From NCBI GenBank assembly GCA_028864975.1, contig JAGWLG010000009.1, positions 32,001-96,000 on the forward strand: a stretch of DNA of 64,000 nucleotides, given 5' to 3'. The first letter of the stretch is position 1; every line of letters begins with the position of its first letter. The stretch comes from Thermoplasmata archaeon. Its GTDB lineage: Archaea > Thermoplasmatota > Thermoplasmata > Lutacidiplasmatales > UBA184. Below are positions 11,504-22,267 of this stretch, piece by piece. Under the pieces are notes generated by a model. That model was not told the DNA's origin, ran no database searches, and was given only the letters and a program-made list of their open reading frames with translations. Made by a program: the position numbers and the translations under genes.

Positions 11504-12916
11504 TCAGGCCACCTTGGCCGGGGCGGGTTTGCGGTACTTCTGGATGTACTCGGGCTTGATCTTCTTGAGCTCGCGCTCGGGCAGCTCGGAGAGGACGTCC
11601 CATCCGATGCTGAGGGTCTCCTCGATGCTCCGGTCCTCGTCGTAGCCCTGGTTGATGAAGCGTTTCTCCAGTTTCTCGGCAACCCGTAGGTAGATGCGTC
11701 CCTCGGGGGTGAGCGCCTCCTCTCCCACGATCTGAGAAAGGGCCCTCTGGTCCTTTCCCTCGGCATAGCTCGAGAAGAGCTGGTCCTTGAGCCCGGCGTG
11801 GTCCTCGCGCGTCTTACCCTTGCCGATGCCCAAGCTCATGAGGCGGGAGAGCGAGAGCGACACGTCGATCGGAGGGTAGACGCCCCGTCGGTGCAGGTCG
11901 CGGCCCATCTCGGTCTGACCCTCGGTGATGTAGCCCGTAAGGTCGGGGATGGGATGCGTGCGGTCATCCGCCGGCATGGTCAGGATGGGGAACTGCGTGA
12001 TCGAGCCCTTTCGGCCCTTCATCCTCCCAGCCCGTTCGTAGATCTGGGCCAGGTCCGTGTACATGTATCCCGGATACCCGCGTCGTCCCGGAACCTCCTC
12101 GCGAGCGGCAGAGATCTCCCGAAGAGCCTCGCAGTAGTTCGTCATGTCGGTGAGGACGACCAGGACGTGCATGTCGCGCTCGTAGGCGAGGAACTCCGCG
12201 GTGGTGAGCGCCATGCGTGGCGTGATCACCCGCTCCATCGCGGGGTCGGAGGAGATGTTCAGGAAAACCACCGTTCGCTCGAGCGCACCCGTGCTCTCGA
12301 ACTCCCGTGTGAAGTAGTTCGCCTCCTCGCTCGTGATCCCCATCGCTCCGAAGACGACGGCGAAGTTCTCCGACGAGTTCAACACCTTCGCTTGCCGGAC
12401 GATCTGGGCGGCGACCTGATTATGGGGCATCCCCGCGCCGGAGAAGATCGGGAGCTTCTGGCCCCGGACGAGGGTGTTCATCCCGTCGATGGCGCTGATC
12501 CCCGTCTGGATGAACTCCGAGGGCTGGTCGCGAGAGTAGGGGTTCATCGCGTTCCCGACGATCTCGAACTTCTCCTTCGACACGATCTTGGGGCCGCCAT
12601 CGCGAGGCTGACCGAGTCCGTCGAAGACGCGCCCGAGCATCTCGTCGGAGCAGGCGAGCCGGGCGACATCGCCGGAGAACTTGACCGTGGTCGCGGTATC
12701 GTTCATCCCCAGGGTCGGTCCGAACACTTGGATGATGGCCAGACCACGTCGGGACTCGAGCACCTGGCCCGTACGGGTGACCCCGTCGGGTAGGGTGATC
12801 TCGACGATCTCCCCGTAGGCGGCGTTCGAGACCCCTTCCACGAAGAGGAGGGGCCCCGCGATACGTTCGATCGTTCGGTAGTCTACGGGCACGGGGGGCA
12901 GTGTGGAAGCGCTCAT
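11504..12916 (-). CDS. atpB: A-type ATP synthase subunit B
   Basis: Start re-called to ATG 12916 (ATGA overlap with atpA); [39 protein letters not shown]. Confidence 0.97.
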
Positions 12917-14679
12917 GACCCGACCTCCTTGACCAGCTGAGAGAGTTGGGCCGACGCCTCCCGTTCGACCGCCTCGATCGCTGCGAGCCCGCCCTTCTCG
13001 CTCGTGGTCTTCATTCGAGCGATGCTCGTTCGAGCGGGGAGCTGGGCGATCTTCCGGACCGGGACGCCCTTGTTGACCGCTTCCACCTCCTTGCGGCCGA
13101 AGTCGAGGATGGTCTTGAGCATCCGATACTGCTTCGCGATCGACGCGTAGGTATCGATGTCGTCGTAGGCGCTTTGCTGAAGGTAGTCCTCTCGGATCAT
13201 CCGGGCGGTGTCGAGGACCGCCTTCTCCTTCTCTTGGAGGGCGTCCTCCCCTACGAGCTGGACGATCTCCTTCAGGGACGCTTCCTTGTCGAGGATCTCG
13301 AGCGCTTCCTTGCGAAGATCGATCCACTCCTTCGAGACCTTCTCGTTGTACCACGGAGCGAGATCGTCGGTGTAGAGGGAATAGCTCGTCAGCCAGTTGA
13401 TCGCTGGATAGTGTCGGCGGCTGGCGAGGTCGAAATCGAGGGCCCAATAGACCCGCGTGGCGCGCAAGGTGTTCTGGGAGACCGGCTCGCTGGTGTCACC
13501 GCCCGGCGGGCTCACCGCACCGATGACGCTGATCGAACCCTGGCGCTCTGGAGCGCCGATGACCACGACCTGACCGGCCCGCTCATAGAACTCCGCCACC
13601 TTTCGGCCCAGGTAGGCCGGGTAGCCCTCCTCCCCGGGCATCTCCTCAAGACGGCCCGAGATCTCTCGCAGCGCCTCGGCCCACCGTGAGGTGGAGTCGG
13701 CCATCAGCGCCACATCGAACCCCATGTCACGATAGTACTCCGCAAGGGTGATCCCCGTGTAGACGCTCGCCTCACGGGCGGCCACGGGCATGTTGGAAGT
13801 GTTGGCGATCAGGATCGTCCGCTCCATGAGCGGGCGCTTGGTCTTAGGGTCCTCGAGGTGGGGGAACTCGGTCAGCACCTCCGTCATCTCGTTGCCGCGC
13901 TCGCCGCAGCCGACGTAGACGACCACGTCGGCCTCGGCCCACTTCGCGAGCTGTTGCTGAGTGACCGTTTTTCCCGTCCCGAAGGCCCCAGGAATACATG
14001 CAGAGCCACCTTTAGCTAGAGGAAATAGCGTGTCGATGACCCTTTGTCCGGTAACTAGCGGTAATCGAGGAGGCAATTTCTTGGAAACTGGGCGGGGAAC
14101 TCGCACCTGCCATTTGTGGGAGAGACCGAGCGGGACGTTCCCTTTCGGGGTGTCGACCGAACCGATGGTCTGACGGATCGTGTACTTTCCGCTCGCCAGC
14201 TCTTTGATGGTGCCGGCAACGGTCGGAGGGACCAGGATGCGGTGCTGGATCAAGGGGGTCTCTTGCACCGTCCCGAGGACGTCCCCGCCGCGGACCGTCT
14301 CCCCGGGCTTCTTCGTGGCGGTGAACTCCCAGACGGTCTTCTCGTCGAGCGGGGTCGTTACGAACCCGCGCTGGATGAAGTCCCCCCCGGCGGCCTTCAG
14401 GACGTCGAGCGGTCGCTGGACCCCGTCGTAGATGGACTTGAGGAGGCCGGGACCCAGTTCGACCGAGAGGGCCTGTCCGGTGTTCTCCACCTTGTCGCCA
14501 GGTCGGATGCCGGTGGTCTCCTCGTAGACCTGGACCGTCGCGTCCCCCTCGACGAGCCGGATGATCTCCCCCACCAGGCCGAGCTCGCCCACGCGCACCA
14601 CATCGAACATGCGGGCGCCCTGAAGACCTTCGGCGATGACGACGGGGCCGGACACTTTGGTGACCACGGGTTCGGTCAT
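12913..14679 (-). CDS. atpA: A-type ATP synthase catalytic subunit A (no intein)
   Basis: 588 aa; P-loop [32 protein letters not shown]. Confidence 0.98.
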
Positions 14680-15608: not shown

Positions 15609-17252
15609 ATGCCCTCGGACCCGGACCTCTCCTCGGGCGATCCCCCATCCCGCACCGCGACCGCAGGCTCCTCCTCGCTTCGACGCGCGCTCCAACGACT
15701 GAAGACCGGGCGGTTCGAGGAGCAGATGGCCGCCCTCCAGTTCCTGGGGGAGGGGCCCCCGCTCGGAGACCCCGCCCCAATCCTGGAATCGCTCGCATCC
15801 CCTCGCCCGGCGCTTCGGGTCGCCGCGGCGTGGGTGCTCCGTCGTCATGGGGAGCGGCGCGGCGTCCCGCACCTACTCCCGCTCCTCCACGACCCCGACC
15901 CCAACGTACGGGCCGCAGCGGCGGAAGCGCTCGGGGTCATCTGCGATCCTCAGGCGGTCCCCGCGCTCTCGGAGCTCCTCAAGGACCCGGAGCCCGTGGT
16001 CCGCATCCACGCCGCGTGGGCACTCTGGTGTCTCAACCGTCCCCACGCCCAGGATGCCCTCACAGGCCTTCTTCGCGACCCCGACCCTCAAGTGCGGTAT
16101 AGCGCCGTCACCGCGATGGGGCGCTTCCGTGACCCCAGGGCGTATCCCTTGCTGCTGGAGTCCATCCACGACGCCTCCGACCGGGTCCGACGGGATGCCG
16201 TACTGGCCCTCGGTCACTTGGGGGGGCCGCACACGGCCGAAGACGTTCGGCCCTGCTTGGAGGACGAAGCCGACCGGGTCCGGATCGCGGCGGCCGTCGT
16301 CATGGGCAAGCTCCGCGACCGGGTCTGCGTTCCGACCCTGCTGCGAAGGTACGGGGGCGAGGACGGCTGGGTGCGCCCCTCCTACCTCGTCGCCCTGGGC
16401 CGGATCGGAGACCGTCGGTGCGTGCCGCTCCTCGTCGGAGCCCTGGAAGAGCGGACCCCCTGGACCGTCGTGTGCGCCCTTTGGTCGCTGGGGGAGATGC
16501 GAGTCCGCAAGGTCGCGGGACCTGTCCGAGGGCTCCTCGCCTCCCCCCACCGGACGGTGCGGGGCGCCGCGGCCGAAGCGCTTGGGCGCGTCGGGGGGAA
16601 GCAGGACGTCCCGAGGCTGCTCGCGCTTCTCTCAGACAAGGAGCCCTGGGTCCGGCGCGGGGCCTGCGTCGGGTTGGGCCATCTAAGGTCCCCTCGCGTC
16701 GGCCCCGCCTTGCGGGCCCGTCTGAGCGACGCGGACGCCGAGGTGCGCTCTGCCGCGGTGTGGGCTCTGGGGCACGTTCGGGACCCCGGCTCCGTTACCC
16801 GTCTTCTCCACATGCTCGAGGAGAGCACCCCACAGGAGCCCTCTCCCCTCAGTAAGGGGGCCGCGCCCCCCGGATCGCCTGGGGGTTTGCCTCCGATGGA
16901 AGAGGAGGTCGTGGTCGCCGAAGGCGACGGCGCGGTCCGCCTCCTGAGCGACGCACAGAAAACGCTCCTGGATACGCTCCTGGTGAGCCTGGGGAGATAC
17001 GCTCGACACGCCTCTGCCGGAGAACGGGACCGAGTTGTCCGTGCGTTACGGAGCGCACTGCAGGCGCTGCCGGCGCCCGCCCGAGAACAGAGGCTCGTGC
17101 TGCCGCGCATGGACCGGGTCGCGGGGCGGGAGGCCCCGAGCCGAGAGCAGCTCGCCGACGGCACCCTTCCTGAGGACCCGCCTCGGAAGGACCGCGTCCA
17201 CGCGAAGGGACCTCCGCGTGGCCCGGTGCAGAGGTCAGCTCCGTCGAGGTAG
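15609..17252 (+). CDS. HEAT/PBS-lyase repeat protein
   Basis: About 11 repeats of roughly 31 aa (L.D.D..VR..A..ALG..G) plus a unique C-terminal region. Confidence 0.9.
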   Translation: MPSDPDLSSGDPPSRTATAGSSSLRRALQRLKTGRFEEQMAALQFLGEGPPLGDPAPILESLASPRPALRVAAAWVLRRHGERRGVPHLLPLLHDPDPNVRAAAAEALGVICDPQAVPALSELLKDPEPVVRIHAAWALWCLNRPHAQDALTGLLRDPDPQVRYSAVTAMGRFRDPRAYPLLLESIHDASDRVRRDAVLALGHLGGPHTAEDVRPCLEDEADRVRIAAAVVMGKLRDRVCVPTLLRRYGGEDGWVRPSYLVALGRIGDRRCVPLLVGALEERTPWTVVCALWSLGEMRVRKVAGPVRGLLASPHRTVRGAAAEALGRVGGKQDVPRLLALLSDKEPWVRRGACVGLGHLRSPRVGPALRARLSDADAEVRSAAVWALGHVRDPGSVTRLLHMLEESTPQEPSPLSKGAAPPGSPGGLPPMEEEVVVAEGDGAVRLLSDAQKTLLDTLLVSLGRYARHASAGERDRVVRALRSALQALPAPAREQRLVLPRMDRVAGREAPSREQLADGTLPEDPPRKDRVHAKGPPRGPVQRSAPSR

Positions 17253-17260
17253 GCACCCCT

Positions 17261-18208
17261 GTGATCTATCGTGAACTGCGCCGGACCGACGTCCAGCAGA
17301 TCTCGCACGAGATGCAGCTCAACTTCGGCCAGGAGCTCTCCCTCAAGGGGTGGGATCCCGCGCACTTCGAGGAGATCTTTGAACGGTCGTTCGGTTTCCC
17401 TGCGGGGTGGGTCCTGGCCATCCTTCGCGCGGTCCGACGTCCCCCGGTGCACCTCTTCGTCGCCGAGGAAGGCGGGAAGGTCGTAGGAACGACCTTCCTC
17501 TTCCTTCAGCGCACGCACGGGTACATCGGGGCCGTCATGACCGACCCCGGGTTCCGCGGGAAGGGGATTGCTTCCGAACTGCTCTCCCGGGCGGAGCGAG
17601 CGTGCGCTCGTCGAGGGCGCCGATGGGCGGTCCTGGACGTGCTCACCGACAACCACGTCGCGCGACAGCTCTACGTGAAGCGGGGATACCGCCCGCTTCG
17701 GGTCCAACACTGGCTCTCGAAGCCCCTCGCGCAACGGCGCGAGGCCTTCCGCACCGCCGGGCCGGAGATCCGGGCCATGGAAAAGGCGGACCTGGACCAG
17801 CTGCTCGACCTCTACAGCGCCCAACAGCCTCCCGAGGTGCGGGAGATCCTGGCGCCGGAGCGAGGCCTGCTCTCTCCACCAAGGTACCTCCAGTCGTTGA
17901 TGTCGGCCACGTCCGCCGCATGGTGTACGGGCGCCCTCGGGAACCCTTCGGGGTACGCCCGAGCGACCTTCACCACTCCCCGAGAGGCGGGCAACCTCGG
18001 AGCTCCGCTCTTCGCCGACCGGGCGAGCGCGGTGGAGAAGGAGGAGCTCCTGGAGACCGCGTTGGGATGGCTCGCGGCGAGCGGCGCCAGCAGCGTGGTC
18101 TGCGAGGTACCTGCGTACCAGGGCGCGGTCCTCCAGATGCTCCAGGACACCGGGTTCGAGGAACGATGGACCATGGACACGCTCGCGCTCGAGGTCAACG
18201 GCAGGTGA
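17261..18208 (+). CDS. Tandem-domain GNAT acetyltransferase
   Basis: IGAVMTDPGFRGKGIASELL (acetyl-CoA motif A), N..ARQLY.KRGY; second degenerate GNAT domain. Confidence 0.85.
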   Translation: MIYRELRRTDVQQISHEMQLNFGQELSLKGWDPAHFEEIFERSFGFPAGWVLAILRAVRRPPVHLFVAEEGGKVVGTTFLFLQRTHGYIGAVMTDPGFRGKGIASELLSRAERACARRGRRWAVLDVLTDNHVARQLYVKRGYRPLRVQHWLSKPLAQRREAFRTAGPEIRAMEKADLDQLLDLYSAQQPPEVREILAPERGLLSPPRYLQSLMSATSAAWCTGALGNPSGYARATFTTPREAGNLGAPLFADRASAVEKEELLETALGWLAASGASSVVCEVPAYQGAVLQMLQDTGFEERWTMDTLALEVNGR

Positions 18209-19599
18209 GCGCCCCCGGACCGAGGGGCGCCCCACGGCGTCCCGGGGTTGTGGTCTATCTCTACCCGTGCCGGATCCAGCAGGGCTGGGGCGACATCGCC
18301 GAGATGGCCCAGGCGGCCTGGGCGCTCCACCGAGCGGGGTTCGAGCTGCGGTATCTCGCGCCTCCCGAGGCCATCCACAAGCGTCCCGATCCCCGCATCG
18401 TTCCGTTCGATCCTACCGCGCCGGGTCCGATCCGCTTCCCTCCCGTGCGCCGTTTGTTCGCACCGGCGCGGAGGGGACGGGCCGTGGTGCTCGCCACATG
18501 GTGGGGTCTGAGCGCCCGTAGGTCGGACCTCGAAGGAGGTCCCCTGCCGGGGCCTCTCGAGGATGCGATCACGAGGATCGTTCGGTCGCACGGGGCCCCG
18601 AACGTTCTCCATGTCAGTTTGGAGGAGTTCGGGTCCGACCAGACCTCCCTTTCAGCCCTGGACGAGGGACTTCGTCAGGCAGGTTGGAGCGCGGCACGGC
18701 GGCAAAGGGCGCTGGCGAGCCCCCAGGGTCGGCGTCAGCAGTGCGCTTACCACCGTGCGTTCGCCCTTGCGAGAGCCGCCGAACGTGAGGGAGTAGTGCA
18801 TCTCAGCGCGACCTTCTCGCCCTCGTTGCCCGCGATGCGGGAGTTCCCCTTCCTTCTGCCCGTGGCGCCCTTCGGTCTCGGAGGGACCGCGATCCTCCGT
18901 CCTCGGGTCTGGGACCGAGGCACGTCCGCCGACCTTGCACGCTCCGCGGTCATCTGGTACGCCAGCCCGAAGAGCTCGGTGGGCTTCGCCCCCGCGTTCC
19001 TCTCCGCCCTAAAGGGACGGAGCCCGAAGGTCCTCCTGCAGGTCCGTGCCCCACCGGCGCTGGAGGAGAAACTCCTCGCCCTTCCGCAGGATGACGTGTC
19101 GGTGGAAGTGCTGGAGGAGCTCTCGCCCTCCAGGTGGAGGAGTGCCCTGGACCGGGCGCACCTTCGGGTCGTTTCCGGAAGTCAGTCGCTTGTCGAGGTG
19201 GTTCGGGGGGGCGGACCGTTTCTCTATTTCAACGGGCTCGTGGGCAAGCCCCGCGGCCCGACACGCGCCTTCCGCCGCGAAAAGCTGCTGTCGCTCGTTC
19301 GGGCTCTAGATGGGCTTCCGAGGGCCGGGGCGCTTTCCAGGGACCTCCTGGACTTTGCGGATGGCAGGAACCTGCGTTCCGTCCTCCGAAGAGCGCTTGG
19401 GTCGGAGGCGTGGCGAGAAGCGATGCGAAGGGCCCTCGCTGCCGTGGTCCTCCGCCTCACGGCGATGGATGGGGACCGGACGCTGGTCTCGATCGTTCAA
19501 GAGTTCGCGCGGAGCGGTGAGGCTGCGAACACCTTCGCGAAGCGCGTGCGCGAGCGGCACCGAGCCCGGCTGTTCCGCGTCAACCCCGAAGCACGGTGA
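18205..19599 (+). CDS. Hypothetical protein, probable GT-B glycosyltransferase with EarP-like motifs (464 aa)
   Basis: Start re-called to GTG 18205 (GTGA overlap); N-terminal PCRIQQGWGDIAEMAQAAWAL, C-terminal LRVVSGSQSLVEVVRGGGPFLY; family assignment by eye only. Confidence 0.55.
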   Translation: MSAPGPRGAPRRPGVVVYLYPCRIQQGWGDIAEMAQAAWALHRAGFELRYLAPPEAIHKRPDPRIVPFDPTAPGPIRFPPVRRLFAPARRGRAVVLATWWGLSARRSDLEGGPLPGPLEDAITRIVRSHGAPNVLHVSLEEFGSDQTSLSALDEGLRQAGWSAARRQRALASPQGRRQQCAYHRAFALARAAEREGVVHLSATFSPSLPAMREFPFLLPVAPFGLGGTAILRPRVWDRGTSADLARSAVIWYASPKSSVGFAPAFLSALKGRSPKVLLQVRAPPALEEKLLALPQDDVSVEVLEELSPSRWRSALDRAHLRVVSGSQSLVEVVRGGGPFLYFNGLVGKPRGPTRAFRREKLLSLVRALDGLPRAGALSRDLLDFADGRNLRSVLRRALGSEAWREAMRRALAAVVLRLTAMDGDRTLVSIVQEFARSGEAANTFAKRVRERHRARLFRVNPEAR

Positions 19600-19656: not shown

Positions 19657-20808
19657 ATGCAAGCCAGCGTTCTTCCACCACCGCCTGCGTCCGCCCCCCC
19701 GGCGCCGTCGTCCCTCCCCGCGTCCGAGGCCGCTGTGGCCCGAAAGGTCCTCAAGGAGACCCTGCGGGTGAAGAAGGGTGAGAACGTCGTCATCGAGACC
19801 TGGAACCATACCCTCGATCTCGCCCGAGCTTTCGTGCTCGAGGCCCGGAAGTTGGGCGCACATCCGGTCCTCCTCTTCGAGGACGAGCGGACCTACTGGG
19901 ATAGCGTGGACTCGGCCGACCCCCGGGAGCTCGGCAAGGTCGGGAGCCACGAATGGGCACTCTTGTCGAAGGCCCAGGCCTATGTCTTCCTCTGGGGACC
20001 GGAGGACCGGCCCCGATTCCGACGGCTCGACCCGAAAGTGATGGAGAAGCTTCACGCGTACAACGACGAGTGGTACGCGCGGGCGAAGCGCGCCCGCCTT
20101 CGCGGGGCCCGGATGGAGATCGGTCGCGTCACCGAGGCGAATGCGCAGCAGTTCAACGTCCCTCTCGCCGCCTGGCGCCAGGAGGTCCTGGAGGCGACCA
20201 TGGCCGACACCGCGACGATGGTGCGAGAGGGGAAGCACCTCGCGCAGGTCCTGCAACGGGGCAAGCGGGTCACGATCGATCATCCCAACGGCACACACCT
20301 GGAGCTTCAGCTTCGGGGAAAGCGTCCGGTGGTGGAGGATGGCGTCGTCGGCGCGGAGGACGTTGCCGCAGGACAGAACATGACCAGCGTTCCCGGAGGA
20401 TACGTCGCGGTCGCGCTTGATGAACGCTACGGGGAAGGGACGTTCCGATCGAACCGCACGAGCTTCCTCTCGGGCGGCCGGGCCGAAGGAGGGGAGTGGA
20501 CGATCTCGGGCGGCCGCCTCACTGCGTCGACCTACCGGAGCGGCGGCGAGTTTTTCTCGGCCCCCTTCGAGAAGGCCCCGAAGAAGGGGAGGGACCAACT
20601 GGGGATGCTTTCGATCGGTCTCAACCCCCGGATCTCGAGCTCTCCCCAGATGGAGGACCAGGAGCGCGGCGTGGTCCTGGTCACGTTGGGAAGGAACGAC
20701 AACGTGGGCGGGAGCAACAAGGTCCCGTTCCTGACGTGGCTCGCTCTGGGAGGGGCCAACGTGTCGGTGGACGGCAAGCCCCTGGTCGCGGGTGGGAACA
20801 TCGTCTGA
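19657..20808 (+). CDS. Peptidase M29 (aminopeptidase T/II) homolog, metal ligands apparently lost
   Basis: VKKGENVVI, PGG.V, LSIGLNP, LG.N..VGG scaffold. Confidence 0.75.
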   Translation: MQASVLPPPPASAPPAPSSLPASEAAVARKVLKETLRVKKGENVVIETWNHTLDLARAFVLEARKLGAHPVLLFEDERTYWDSVDSADPRELGKVGSHEWALLSKAQAYVFLWGPEDRPRFRRLDPKVMEKLHAYNDEWYARAKRARLRGARMEIGRVTEANAQQFNVPLAAWRQEVLEATMADTATMVREGKHLAQVLQRGKRVTIDHPNGTHLELQLRGKRPVVEDGVVGAEDVAAGQNMTSVPGGYVAVALDERYGEGTFRSNRTSFLSGGRAEGGEWTISGGRLTASTYRSGGEFFSAPFEKAPKKGRDQLGMLSIGLNPRISSSPQMEDQERGVVLVTLGRNDNVGGSNKVPFLTWLALGGANVSVDGKPLVAGGNIV

Positions 20809-20816
20809 CCCTCACC

Positions 20817-21446
20817 ATGACCGGCCGGTCTGACCCCTCCGCGGTCCGGAAGGTCCGCCCCCACGCGAACTGGAGGGGCTCGTTCGAACGCCCCCTGCCT
20901 CGTAGCTTCTTCGCGCGCCCCACGGCTCGGGTCGCGAGGGACCTGTTGGGATGTTACCTCGCTCGTTCTCCCGAGGATGGTGGCCCGGAGGGGTGGCGGG
21001 TGGGACGCGTGGTGGAGACCGAGGCCTACGTGGCCAACGATCCCGCCAACCACGCCGCGAGAGGGATGACCGAGCGCAACCGGTCGATGTTCCTCGGGCC
21101 GGGGCATGTCTACATCTATCGGATCCACCAGGTCCACTGCGCGAACCTCACGACCGCTCCCGGGCAGGCCGTGCTCCTGCGCGCGGTGGAACCGGTCACC
21201 CCTCTCCCCTCCGCGCCACGGGGGCCCGGACTGCTGTGTCGGGCCTTCGGGCTCGAACGCACCCAGGACGGGGCCGATGCGGTCAGGGGGGAACTTCGGG
21301 TCCTTCCGCGCGACCAGGCCCCTCCCCAGTTCGTCGCGGTCCCCCGGGTGGGCATCCGGCTCGCGTCCGAGCGGCGGTTGCGATTCCTCGTCCCGACCTC
21401 CCCGTGGGTCTCGAAACGGCCATCGCTCCGAAGGAAGGGAGCATGA
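20817..21446 (+). CDS. mpg: 3-methyladenine DNA glycosylase (MPG/AAG family)
   Basis: Start re-called to ATG 20817; FFARP...VARDLLG, VETEAY, PGHVYIY, AVLLRA.EP, GPG.LCRAFG, PRVGI. Confidence 0.92.
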   Translation: MTGRSDPSAVRKVRPHANWRGSFERPLPRSFFARPTARVARDLLGCYLARSPEDGGPEGWRVGRVVETEAYVANDPANHAARGMTERNRSMFLGPGHVYIYRIHQVHCANLTTAPGQAVLLRAVEPVTPLPSAPRGPGLLCRAFGLERTQDGADAVRGELRVLPRDQAPPQFVAVPRVGIRLASERRLRFLVPTSPWVSKRPSLRRKGA

Positions 21447-22267
21447 CCGCGGGCAAGGTCCTCATCGGCTGCTCCGGCTGGGACTACCCTGAATGGGTGG
21501 GGCGCTTCTATCCCGCTCGCGGGCAGGTCGACCGACTTGCGCGCTACTCCCAGGTGTTCCCTGTTGTCGAGGTCGATTCGAGCTTCTACAACATTCCCAC
21601 GGAACGGACCGTGGAAAGATGGGACCACCGCACCCCCCGGGGTTTTCGGTTCGCGGCGAAGTTCCCCCAGGAGATCACCCACCGTCGGCGCCTCGAGGAC
21701 TGCGCGGAGCCCCTGGAAGCCCACTATCGAGCGTTCCACCCGCTCATCCGAAGCGGGAAGGTCGTAGCGTTCCTACTGCAGCTTCCCCCGTCGCTGCCGT
21801 TCGACGAGAGCAAGGTCCGTGGGTTCTACGCGACCCTGCCCACGGACCCCCCCGTGGCGGTCGAGTTCCGCGAGAAAAGCTGGCTCTGCCCCGCCTCCTA
21901 CGACCTCCTGCGGGAATACCACCTTTCGACGACGATCGTGGACGAACCGTTCCTTCCCGCGGACCTCACGCTGACCAACCCCGACCTTGCCTACATGAGA
22001 TGGCATGGGAGGGGAACGACGGTCTGGTACGACTACCGGTACAGCCGTGACGAGCTCAAGGCGTGGGTCCCACGGGTGGAGGAGGTGGCGTCGAAGGCGA
22101 AGCTCTTCTTGGGTTTCTTCAACAACCATTTCCGGGGCGACGCCCCGGCCAACGCGCTCGAGATCGACGAGATGCTGGGGATAGGGCCTCCGCCGTGGAG
22201 CGGCAGGCTTGACCAACCGGCCATCCCCTCGGCGTCCACCGCTCCGGCCTCCACGGACGCTCCCTGA
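21443..22267 (+). CDS. DUF72 (YecE-like) TIM-barrel protein
   Basis: IGCSGW.Y.EW...FYP, VEVDSSFY, F..KFP..ITH, L.QLPPS, AVEFR..SW, Y.RWHG, FFNN. Confidence 0.9.
   Translation: MTAGKVLIGCSGWDYPEWVGRFYPARGQVDRLARYSQVFPVVEVDSSFYNIPTERTVERWDHRTPRGFRFAAKFPQEITHRRRLEDCAEPLEAHYRAFHPLIRSGKVVAFLLQLPPSLPFDESKVRGFYATLPTDPPVAVEFREKSWLCPASYDLLREYHLSTTIVDEPFLPADLTLTNPDLAYMRWHGRGTTVWYDYRYSRDELKAWVPRVEEVASKAKLFLGFFNNHFRGDAPANALEIDEMLGIGPPPWSGRLDQPAIPSASTAPASTDAP

Follow-up and report, generated by a model that had tools for sequence, protein, structure and literature searches.

What kind of enzyme is encoded behind a HEAT-repeat gene and a double-GNAT gene in an uncultured archaeon of the Thermoplasmata, and what might it modify? 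The question is raised by a 64,000-nucleotide stretch of DNA (hereafter the window; contig C6:32001–96000, G+C content of 67%) taken from a 3.6-Mb genome that is 89.6% complete, in which four genes of the same strand lie downstream of a divergent A-type ATP synthase operon and encode, in order, a HEAT-repeat protein, a double-GNAT protein, a third protein that is herein called X, and a protein of the M29 peptidase family (Table 1). A preliminary description of the window had proposed that the first three genes form a protein-modification system, and that X resembles EarP, a bacterial glycosyltransferase. The answer obtained here is that X belongs to an undescribed family with the GT-B fold, of which EarP is the sole detectable relative in the tests that were run. 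With a probability of roughly 60%, X is an inverting nucleoside diphosphate (NDP)-sugar transferase, remotely homologous to EarP, that has acquired a new donor and a new acceptor, the latter perhaps a protein target shared by the products of the operon.

EarP is the arginine-32 rhamnosyltransferase of the elongation factor EF-P and constitutes CAZy family GT104 (Pfam PF10093; PDB entries 5NV8, 5WXI-K, and 6J7J-M); it takes dTDP-β-L-rhamnose as the donor and the arginine at the tip of an EF-P hairpin as the acceptor, and its gene usually adjoins efp. The AlphaFold2 model of X, built with 38 homologues, is a two-domain α/β structure with a predicted local distance difference test score of 88.8 and a predicted template modelling (TM) score of 0.90; the predicted fold can be identified with confidence as that of a GT-B glycosyltransferase with two Rossmann-like domains, as the preliminary description had supposed. 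In a Foldseek comparison of this model with the PDB, EarP of P. aeruginosa came first (6j7l, E = 8.4e-9), and in both Atlas structure searches EarP was the first named family apart from X's own, with TM scores of 0.59/0.68 when the model of this study was used as the query. A PseG/SpsG cluster stands below EarP in the Atlas list at a TM score of 0.56; none of the best 50 PDB structure matches of X is a PseG chain, and X has no PseG/SpsG match in NCBIfam or Pfam.

Sequence profiles single out EarP further. Comparison by hhalign of X with five EarP sequences gave E = 4.1e-5 with a probability of 70% over 113 columns, and with 12 EarP sequences E = 7.8e-5 to 1.4e-4 over 280–289 columns, against E = 0.11–0.17 for 19 MurG sequences and E = 0.08–0.15 for 24 MGT sequences of family GT1. 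As controls, reversed EarP or reversed MurG gave E = 0.17–0.31 with X; EarP matched MurG (E = 0.31) and MGT (E = 0.55) at the level of noise, and the positive control, MurG against MGT, gave E = 4.8e-12. A search by ESM language-model features led in the same direction, with PF10093 EarP accounting for 19 of the 30 nearest clusters, the best at 0.92 with 180 shared features. The likeness to EarP that had been proposed earlier has therefore been upheld in two ways, EarP being the best or joint-best structural match of X and its only significant profile match among the GT-B families tested. The EarP set used in these comparisons was collected by genome searches from Pseudomonas, Shewanella, Comamonas, Alishewanella, Achromobacter, and other genomes; P. 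putida EarP as a query returned just Pseudomonas proteins of at least 71% identity, and the EarP profile was not deepened. In two of the genomes searched, the EarP matches of the hidden Markov model (HMM) fall into adjoining pieces, namely in Paraburkholderia (loci L132/L133, G004:C1:636736-637855; HMM positions 1-200 and 191-371) and in Duganella (L199/L200, G726:C1:4282249-4283353; positions 2-245 and 238-371, with a TGA inside), and these earP genes may be frameshifted or split.

The relationship is nevertheless a distant one. The PF10093 HMM matches neither X, at E values up to 1, nor anything in the genome when all six frames are searched, although as a control it recovers the EarP proteins of Pseudomonas, Shewanella, Comamonas, and other genomes at E = 1e-81 to 1e-159. 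Moreover, the acceptor-side N-domain of X, when tested separately, has no EarP-specific similarity and resembles a generic GT-B N-domain. Judged by these alignments, X is a specific but remote relative of GT104, mainly by way of the nucleotide-sugar-binding C-domain and an N-terminal G-D loop, and it is not an EarP orthologue. No archaeal relative of EarP is reported in the EarP papers examined, where Archaea appear just in connection with aIF5A.

X matches no Pfam or NCBIfam family, and its homologues, about 90 to 140 at the cluster level, are all unnamed or annotated as hypothetical; those with a source name all come from metagenome-assembled genomes of "Thermoplasmata archaeon". A profile search of 5.8 billion proteins with the X alignment (A1) returned 141 matches at E = 0.001 or better, and the 120 of these that were listed all belong to X's own family, with no bridging relative among them; a HMMER scan with one sequence against 1.84 billion representatives yielded 71 matches, and a profile of 38 X sequences met only chance matches by sequence in the PDB. 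By whole-genome searches, X is present in 155 of the 180 genomes of the window's GTDB family (63 of the 67 high-quality ones) and in all seven genera, and it was not found in 391 other Thermoplasmatota genomes sampled across the phylum; these tallies take in the unpublished genomes G701, G702, and G703, whose sequences are left out of the alignments. Among the genomes in which X was not found, G331 has an M29 gene that begins 131 nucleotides from a contig end, so the absence is attributed to the assembly break beside it; G574, G588, G620, and G622 have just M29 homologues in other contexts, which leaves loss or missing assembly. X is a real, selected gene and marks one family of uncultured Thermoplasmata almost universally. 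Within the window's genus (loci L175–L177), X is 49–51% identical, compared with 67–77% for GNAT, 67–68% for HEAT, 66–71% for M29, and 90% for ATPase subunit A; X hence diverges markedly faster than its neighbours, around motifs that are strictly invariant.

The preliminary description had compared four peptide segments of X with EarP motifs. All four segments occur in the translation, namely PCRIQQGWGDIAE (residues 21–33), LHVSLEEFGS (135–144), LDRAHLRVVSGSQSLVEVVRGGGPFLY (315–341), and REKLLSLV (358–365), and the EarP motifs cited in that description agree with those of real EarP genes, which carry WDIFCxV(V/I)DN(Y/F)GD(I/V)GVxWRLA, W(L/I)NLEYLSAE, NxVRGE(D/E)SFVRAQWAxxPxxWHIY, and HxxKLxAF. 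The motifs of X coincide with invariant columns of a family of more than 100 clusters, there being about 30 invariant columns across 108 sequences. As for the pairings, that of the G-D aspartate is supported by hhalign, but that of the second motif, SLEEF with EarP NLEYL, has not been confirmed: hhalign places SLEEF, at low confidence, one EarP strand earlier, against VIEAF, whereas NLEYL is the better fit to the order of secondary-structure elements.

In the X family, G27 and G29 are found in 104 of 104 ungapped sequences, and position 30 is D in 98 of them and E in six; S138 and E141 are each present in 108/108, E140 in 105/108, and Y252, A253, R357, and K360 in all 108. Similarly, G325, S326, P338, and the run Y341-F-N-G344 are invariant or nearly so. 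Six EarP residues have identical or conservative counterparts in X (D17 = D30, F191 = Y252, G272 = G325, S275 = S/T328, P285 = P338, and K301 = K360), and seven are replaced (D13 by Q/G, R271 by S/T, E273 by S, D274 by Q/R, Y193 by S, Y291 by G, and R278 by E331). The position of E331 is, we presume, that of the ribose-binding glutamate of MurG and of GT1 enzymes that use ribonucleotide sugars. X thus shares with EarP the G-D loop after strand 1 and a C-domain chain that consists of an aromatic residue after the first strand, x-G-x-x-S/T, P-x-x-aromatic, and the lysine K301 = K360; it differs in some 90 extra residues, which form a helical insert (148–189) and C-terminal helices.

In EarP, the acids D13, D17, and E273 do not vary and none of them is dispensable, and the TDP-rhamnose site is made up of R271, Y193, F191, F252, Q255, F258, D274, and Y291, with F191 stacking on the base and R271 binding the diphosphate (PMC5615199). 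Only one of the three catalytic acids, D17 = D30, is kept in X; the counterpart of D13 (Q26) is G in 74 and Q in 21 of the 108 sequences, and that of E273 (S326) is S in 101. The hhalign alignment and these frequencies agree with the earlier observation that the G-D aspartate is retained and that the acids of VVD and GED are replaced. Of the TDP (thymidine diphosphate) pocket, aromatic character persists at F191 (= Y252) alone, and F252, Q255, and F258 fall in a part of the alignment where confidence is too low for them to be placed. The modelled fold and the conserved motifs would nonetheless fit the Leloir GT-B pattern, with a C-domain for the NDP-sugar and a base in the loop between strand 1 and helix 1. 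With so many EarP residues exchanged, X might instead have the GT-B fold without being a transferase, for instance as an NDP-sugar hydrolase or epimerase (as PseG or UDP-GlcNAc 2-epimerase) or as a non-catalytic binding protein. This is very unlikely, in that the presence of roughly 30 invariant residues, with acids in each domain, points to a functional active site, X has no NCBIfam match at all and hence none to PseG, and no Pse-pathway genes are seen next to it.

If X is a transferase, its donor and acceptor very probably differ from those of EarP, as had been anticipated on the grounds of the replaced acids. A check of the aIF5A loop and of deoxyhypusine synthase had been suggested at the same time. 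The loop reads SKPGKHGEAK in this genome, a standard hypusine loop with the lysine kept, and recurs unchanged in 28 more genomes of the family (29/29 examined for the loop); a separate tally of aIF5A, which takes in G701 and G703, stands at 41/41, and in this genome the aIF5A gene lies on another contig (C121) than X. The genome also encodes two full-length deoxyhypusine synthases (PF01916; E = 5.6e-100 and 6.4e-87), an enzyme that is usually single-copy in archaea. Because the hypusine lysine is kept and deoxyhypusine synthase is present, an EarP-style glycosylation of an aIF5A arginine is excluded. On the donor side, RmlC (PF00908) was not found in this 89.6%-complete genome (RmlA, RmlB, and RmlD were not searched for), and among 61 high-quality relatives no more than 13 have an RmlC match that attains the Pfam cut-off, of which one is strong; since RmlC is rare while X is nearly universal, dTDP-L-rhamnose is an unlikely donor. 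Unlike EarP, moreover, X is archaeal, does not stand beside an EF-P or aIF5A gene, and coexists with a substrate homologue that has lysine rather than arginine. X is also extremely basic, with an isoelectric point (pI) of 11.4 (family median 11.6) and a net charge of +29, as opposed to pI values of 4.8–6.1 in EarP proteins; such basicity suggests docking on an acidic protein, on RNA, or on an anionic membrane.

A different link to aIF5A can still be conceived, in which X is the counterpart of EarP and glycosylates (deoxy)hypusine or a nearby residue, with the HEAT and GNAT proteins as further aIF5A-modifying partners that echo DOHH, a eukaryotic HEAT-repeat hydroxylase, and SSAT1, a GNAT enzyme. 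EarP is the sole detectable relative of X, aIF5A is the archaeal homologue of the EarP substrate, two deoxyhypusine synthase paralogues are present, and, in the two genera where X has been relocated, it lies beside translation genes (the rpl3 operon and a glycine-tRNA ligase gene). The proposal is nonetheless highly unlikely, for the hypusine loop is standard and is shared, unchanged, by relatives that have X and by one genome that yielded none, the acceptor domain of X is devoid of EarP-specific similarity, the two EarP acids that are thought to activate arginine are missing, and the HEAT protein is without the His-Glu metal motifs of DOHH. Furthermore, X evolves fast, whereas aIF5A is 70–80% identical across the family.

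Comparison of 20 loci from all seven genera and of three metagenomic loci indicates that the order HEAT-GNAT-X-M29 is kept in five of the seven genera (g1, g5, g4, g164, and g2), down to about 30% identity of X, and broken in g3 and g163. The X tree, rooted at its midpoint, has genera with this order on either side of its deepest split (100/100 support), for which reason the arrangement is most simply taken as ancestral. HEAT orthologues are upstream of the GNAT gene in g1, g5, g4, g164, g2, and g163, and the M29 gene follows X in g1, g5, g4, g164, and most g2 loci and is located elsewhere in g3 and g163. Linkage of the three genes, which the preliminary description had asked about, accordingly holds for five genera and fails for two, with GNAT missing from some of the linked loci. 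That description had named three outcomes as contrary to its proposal, and what was found is a GT-B fold, a best match other than PseG/SpsG, and genes that are linked in most relatives. The proposal that the three genes act as one protein-modification system has nonetheless not been established, in view of the broken linkage and of an N-domain without EarP-specific similarity.

Several observations weigh against reading X as an EarP-derived transferase that serves the operon. X lacks the diphosphate-binding R271 and two of EarP's three catalytic acids, so that catalysis must be organised differently or could have been lost, and the rate at which X changes is unusually fast for an enzyme with a conserved target. 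The probability that hhalign assigns to the X–EarP match is just 53–70%, and by structure alone EarP and MurG are effectively tied as the best matches; the tie is broken by the profile comparison, which is significant for EarP alone. The genomic evidence is likewise mixed. X stands apart from HEAT, GNAT, and M29 in both g3 and g163: in g3, the rpl3 ribosomal-protein operon runs divergently from it and a DUF998 gene comes after it, and in g163 (L182:4662-7952, genome G562), it lies directly 3' of a gene for glycine-tRNA ligase (E = 2.3e-130), with an AAA_17 kinase-like gene and a His_Phos_1 gene, and has CHAD and Ppx/GppA genes on its other side, which makes a third and unrelated context. HEAT and GNAT are still adjacent on another contig in g163, and M29 is elsewhere. 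Two g4 loci read HEAT-X-M29 with no room for a GNAT gene, and the GNAT orthologue is missing from two of three g3 genomes; given this relocation and these absences, X is not strictly dependent on its neighbours. Finally, synteny throughout the family extends over the entire region and takes in the Pterin_bind, DUF72, LSM, and L37e genes, and adjacency is for that reason a weak sign that functions are shared. For the g163 tRNA ligase, which is of class II, an identity as prolyl-tRNA synthetase had been considered, which would have offered a link to polyproline; this was rejected on its identification as the glycine enzyme.

Alternatively, X might act as MurG, MGD1, PimA, or BshA do, as a peripheral-membrane or small-molecule glycosyltransferase that makes a lineage-specific glycolipid, a lipoglycan precursor, or a small glycoside, and whose neighbours are such by descent and not as partners. 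That X is of this kind is unlikely, though the possibility deserves serious attention. X has no detectable profile similarity to MurG (GT28) or to GT1 enzymes such as MGT, Gtf, and CalG (E of 0.08 or above), no other glycan or lipid biosynthesis genes, and hence no lipid or peptidoglycan setting, are seen in its three genomic contexts, and by its language-model features it is linked with EarP rather than with glycosyltransferases of lipids.

The neighbouring genes themselves bear out the earlier annotation. Open reading frame (ORF) coordinates and start and stop codons agree with three co-oriented genes, in which the HEAT gene ends with TAG at 17250–17252 and the GNAT gene begins with GTG at 17261, leaving a gap of 8 nucleotides, and the GTG start of X at 18205 overlaps the TGA stop of GNAT (18206–18208) as GTGA; the HEAT and GNAT family calls are confirmed by Pfam. 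In the GNAT protein, the N-terminal domain retains the acetyl-CoA motif R99-x-x-G102-x-A104 together with Y138 (alignment A5), and the C-terminal half has no Pfam GNAT match. Its nearest solved relatives by profile are protein N-terminal acetyltransferases (NATs) and RimI (6wqb at 2.8e-14, 9mto at 1.3e-11, Naa30/20/10, and archaeal Ard1), and double-GNAT orthologues occur in six of nine genomes of the window's family compared with 0 of 391 other Thermoplasmatota. The HEAT protein has a Pro-rich C-terminal tail; residues ~408–547 (window 16830–17252) form a stretch of about 140 residues rich in Pro, Arg, and Glu that looks disordered, and relatives in other genera are some 40–50 residues shorter (497–509 amino acids). 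Its sequence contains no "HE" dipeptide, and therefore no His-Glu diiron motif, and the idea that it is a DOHH-type hydroxylase was rejected. For the M29-like protein, sequence comparison gives no solved relative, and NCBIfam offers no name.

A NAT-like GNAT, an α-solenoid, and an aminopeptidase-family protein fit a protein-processing module. The operon is reminiscent, by analogy alone, of NatA (Naa10-Naa15) and of O-GlcNAc transferase (a TPR solenoid with a GT-B enzyme): as in NatA, a NAT/RimI-like GNAT accompanies an α-solenoid, here with an aminopeptidase-family protein and a GT-B enzyme in addition. In contrast to both, however, the solenoid is of the HEAT_PBS type and encoded by a separate gene, the GNAT has a second, degenerate domain, and the likeness is known from genes alone. 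Structure prediction of a complex of GNAT (A5) and X (A1) gave 0.00 in both runs, against a mark of 0.32 and without controls, and speaks neither for nor against binding. Two GNAT–X fusion calls, P0140 (757 amino acids) and P0153 (505 amino acids), were treated as frameshift artefacts and not as Rosetta-stone evidence. In P0140 (L195:5001-7274, ENA contig_91610), a long-read contig, the central 180 residues are unalignable and Arg/Pro-rich, like an out-of-frame translation, and the call is probably the result of indel errors in the long-read assembly; a call of this sort might be taken for a natural fusion. Beyond the M29 gene, the ORF at 20951–22267 (+ strand, 438 amino acids) has DUF72 confined to residues 188–408, and its first ~180 residues match nothing in Pfam or NCBIfam. 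In the relatives L001 and L004, a separate Pur_DNA_glyco (Mpg) gene of 200–219 amino acids occupies this position between M29 and DUF72, which is why the ORF may represent two genes or a fusion.

Table 1. Positions of the genes and sequence elements discussed in the text; coordinates refer to the window unless a contig is given.
Feature	Position	Strand	Basis
A-type ATP synthase subunit A, in the divergent operon beside HEAT-GNAT-X-M29	12913–14679	-	
HEAT-repeat (PBS-lyase HEAT-like) protein, 547 amino acids	15609–17252	+	Pfam HEAT_2 E 8.7e-70, HEAT_PBS E 8.4e-39
Double-GNAT protein, 315 amino acids	17261–18208	+	Pfam Acetyltransf_1 E 8.4e-19, residues 45–143
Protein X, 464 amino acids, pI 11.4, predicted GT-B fold, remote EarP (GT104) relative, new family	18205–19599	+	
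X: G27-W-G29-D30, strand 1–helix 1 loop; D30 = EarP D17, candidate catalytic base	18283–18294	+	hhalign
X: S138-L-E140-E141-F142, invariant acidic motif, end of N-domain strand, candidate acceptor-site element	18616–18630	+	conservation; model strand 134–140
X: W251-Y252-A253-S254, first C-domain strand and loop; Y252 = EarP F191, S254 = Y193	18955–18966	+	hhalign
X: S324-G325-S326-Q327-S328-L-V-E331, putative donor-site motif = EarP R271-G-E273-D274-S275-x-x-R278	19174–19197	+	high-confidence hhalign block
X: P338-F-L-Y-F-N-G344, invariant, = EarP P285-x-x-W288-H-I-Y291	19216–19236	+	hhalign, conservation
X: R357-R-E359-K360; K360 = invariant EarP K301	19273–19284	+	alignment
M29-family (aminopeptidase T/S-like) protein, 383 amino acids, directly 3' of X	19657–20808	+	Pfam Peptidase_M29 E 4e-10
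Deoxyhypusine synthase L006	G000:C83:47666–48529	-	PF01916
Deoxyhypusine synthase L007	G000:C32:89676–90560	+	PF01916

The preferred explanation, namely that X is an inverting NDP-sugar transferase of EarP ancestry, can be formulated in terms of individual residues. Its fold, its specific relationship to EarP, the replaced residues, the distribution, and the synteny are shown by the analyses above, and catalysis, the class of donor, an inverting mechanism, and a protein acceptor are inferred. In such a mechanism, the NDP-sugar would bind the C-domain with Y252 stacking on the base, the Ser/Thr-rich loops at 253–255 and 324–328 would hold the diphosphate together with R357 and K360, and E331 would hold the ribose; the base for the acceptor nucleophile would be D30 of the strand 1–helix 1 loop, and the invariant E140/E141 pair would shape the acceptor site. 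The donor would probably be something other than dTDP-rhamnose, an aIF5A arginine is excluded as the acceptor, and, with a pI near 11.5, X would probably dock on an acidic macromolecule. Ancestrally in this archaeal family, X would have stood in an operon of HEAT, NAT-like double-GNAT, X, and M29-peptidase genes, and this arrangement makes a protein on which the HEAT, GNAT, and M29 products also act the best guess for the acceptor. A protein-modification role for X is plausible. A bolder version, in which the operon is a lineage-specific module whose HEAT-held NAT-like GNAT, M29 aminopeptidase, and EarP-like transferase jointly modify a translation component (the aIF5A (deoxy)hypusine or a ribosomal protein), with a glycosylated residue undescribed in archaea, is quite improbable.

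To our knowledge, EarP (GT104) has hitherto been an isolated and purely bacterial family with a single known substrate. X provides it with an archaeal sister family, in which the donor-domain scaffold and one catalytic aspartate are kept and the rest of the active site has been rebuilt. The EarP scaffold would thereby have been reused for a different chemistry, which offers a handle on the origin of arginine rhamnosylation. At the same time, X is a clonable entry point to a putative modification pathway, encoded in an operon with a GNAT that resembles protein N-terminal acetyltransferases. If its target turned out to be a translation factor or a ribosomal protein, X would represent a new kind of archaeal translational modification.

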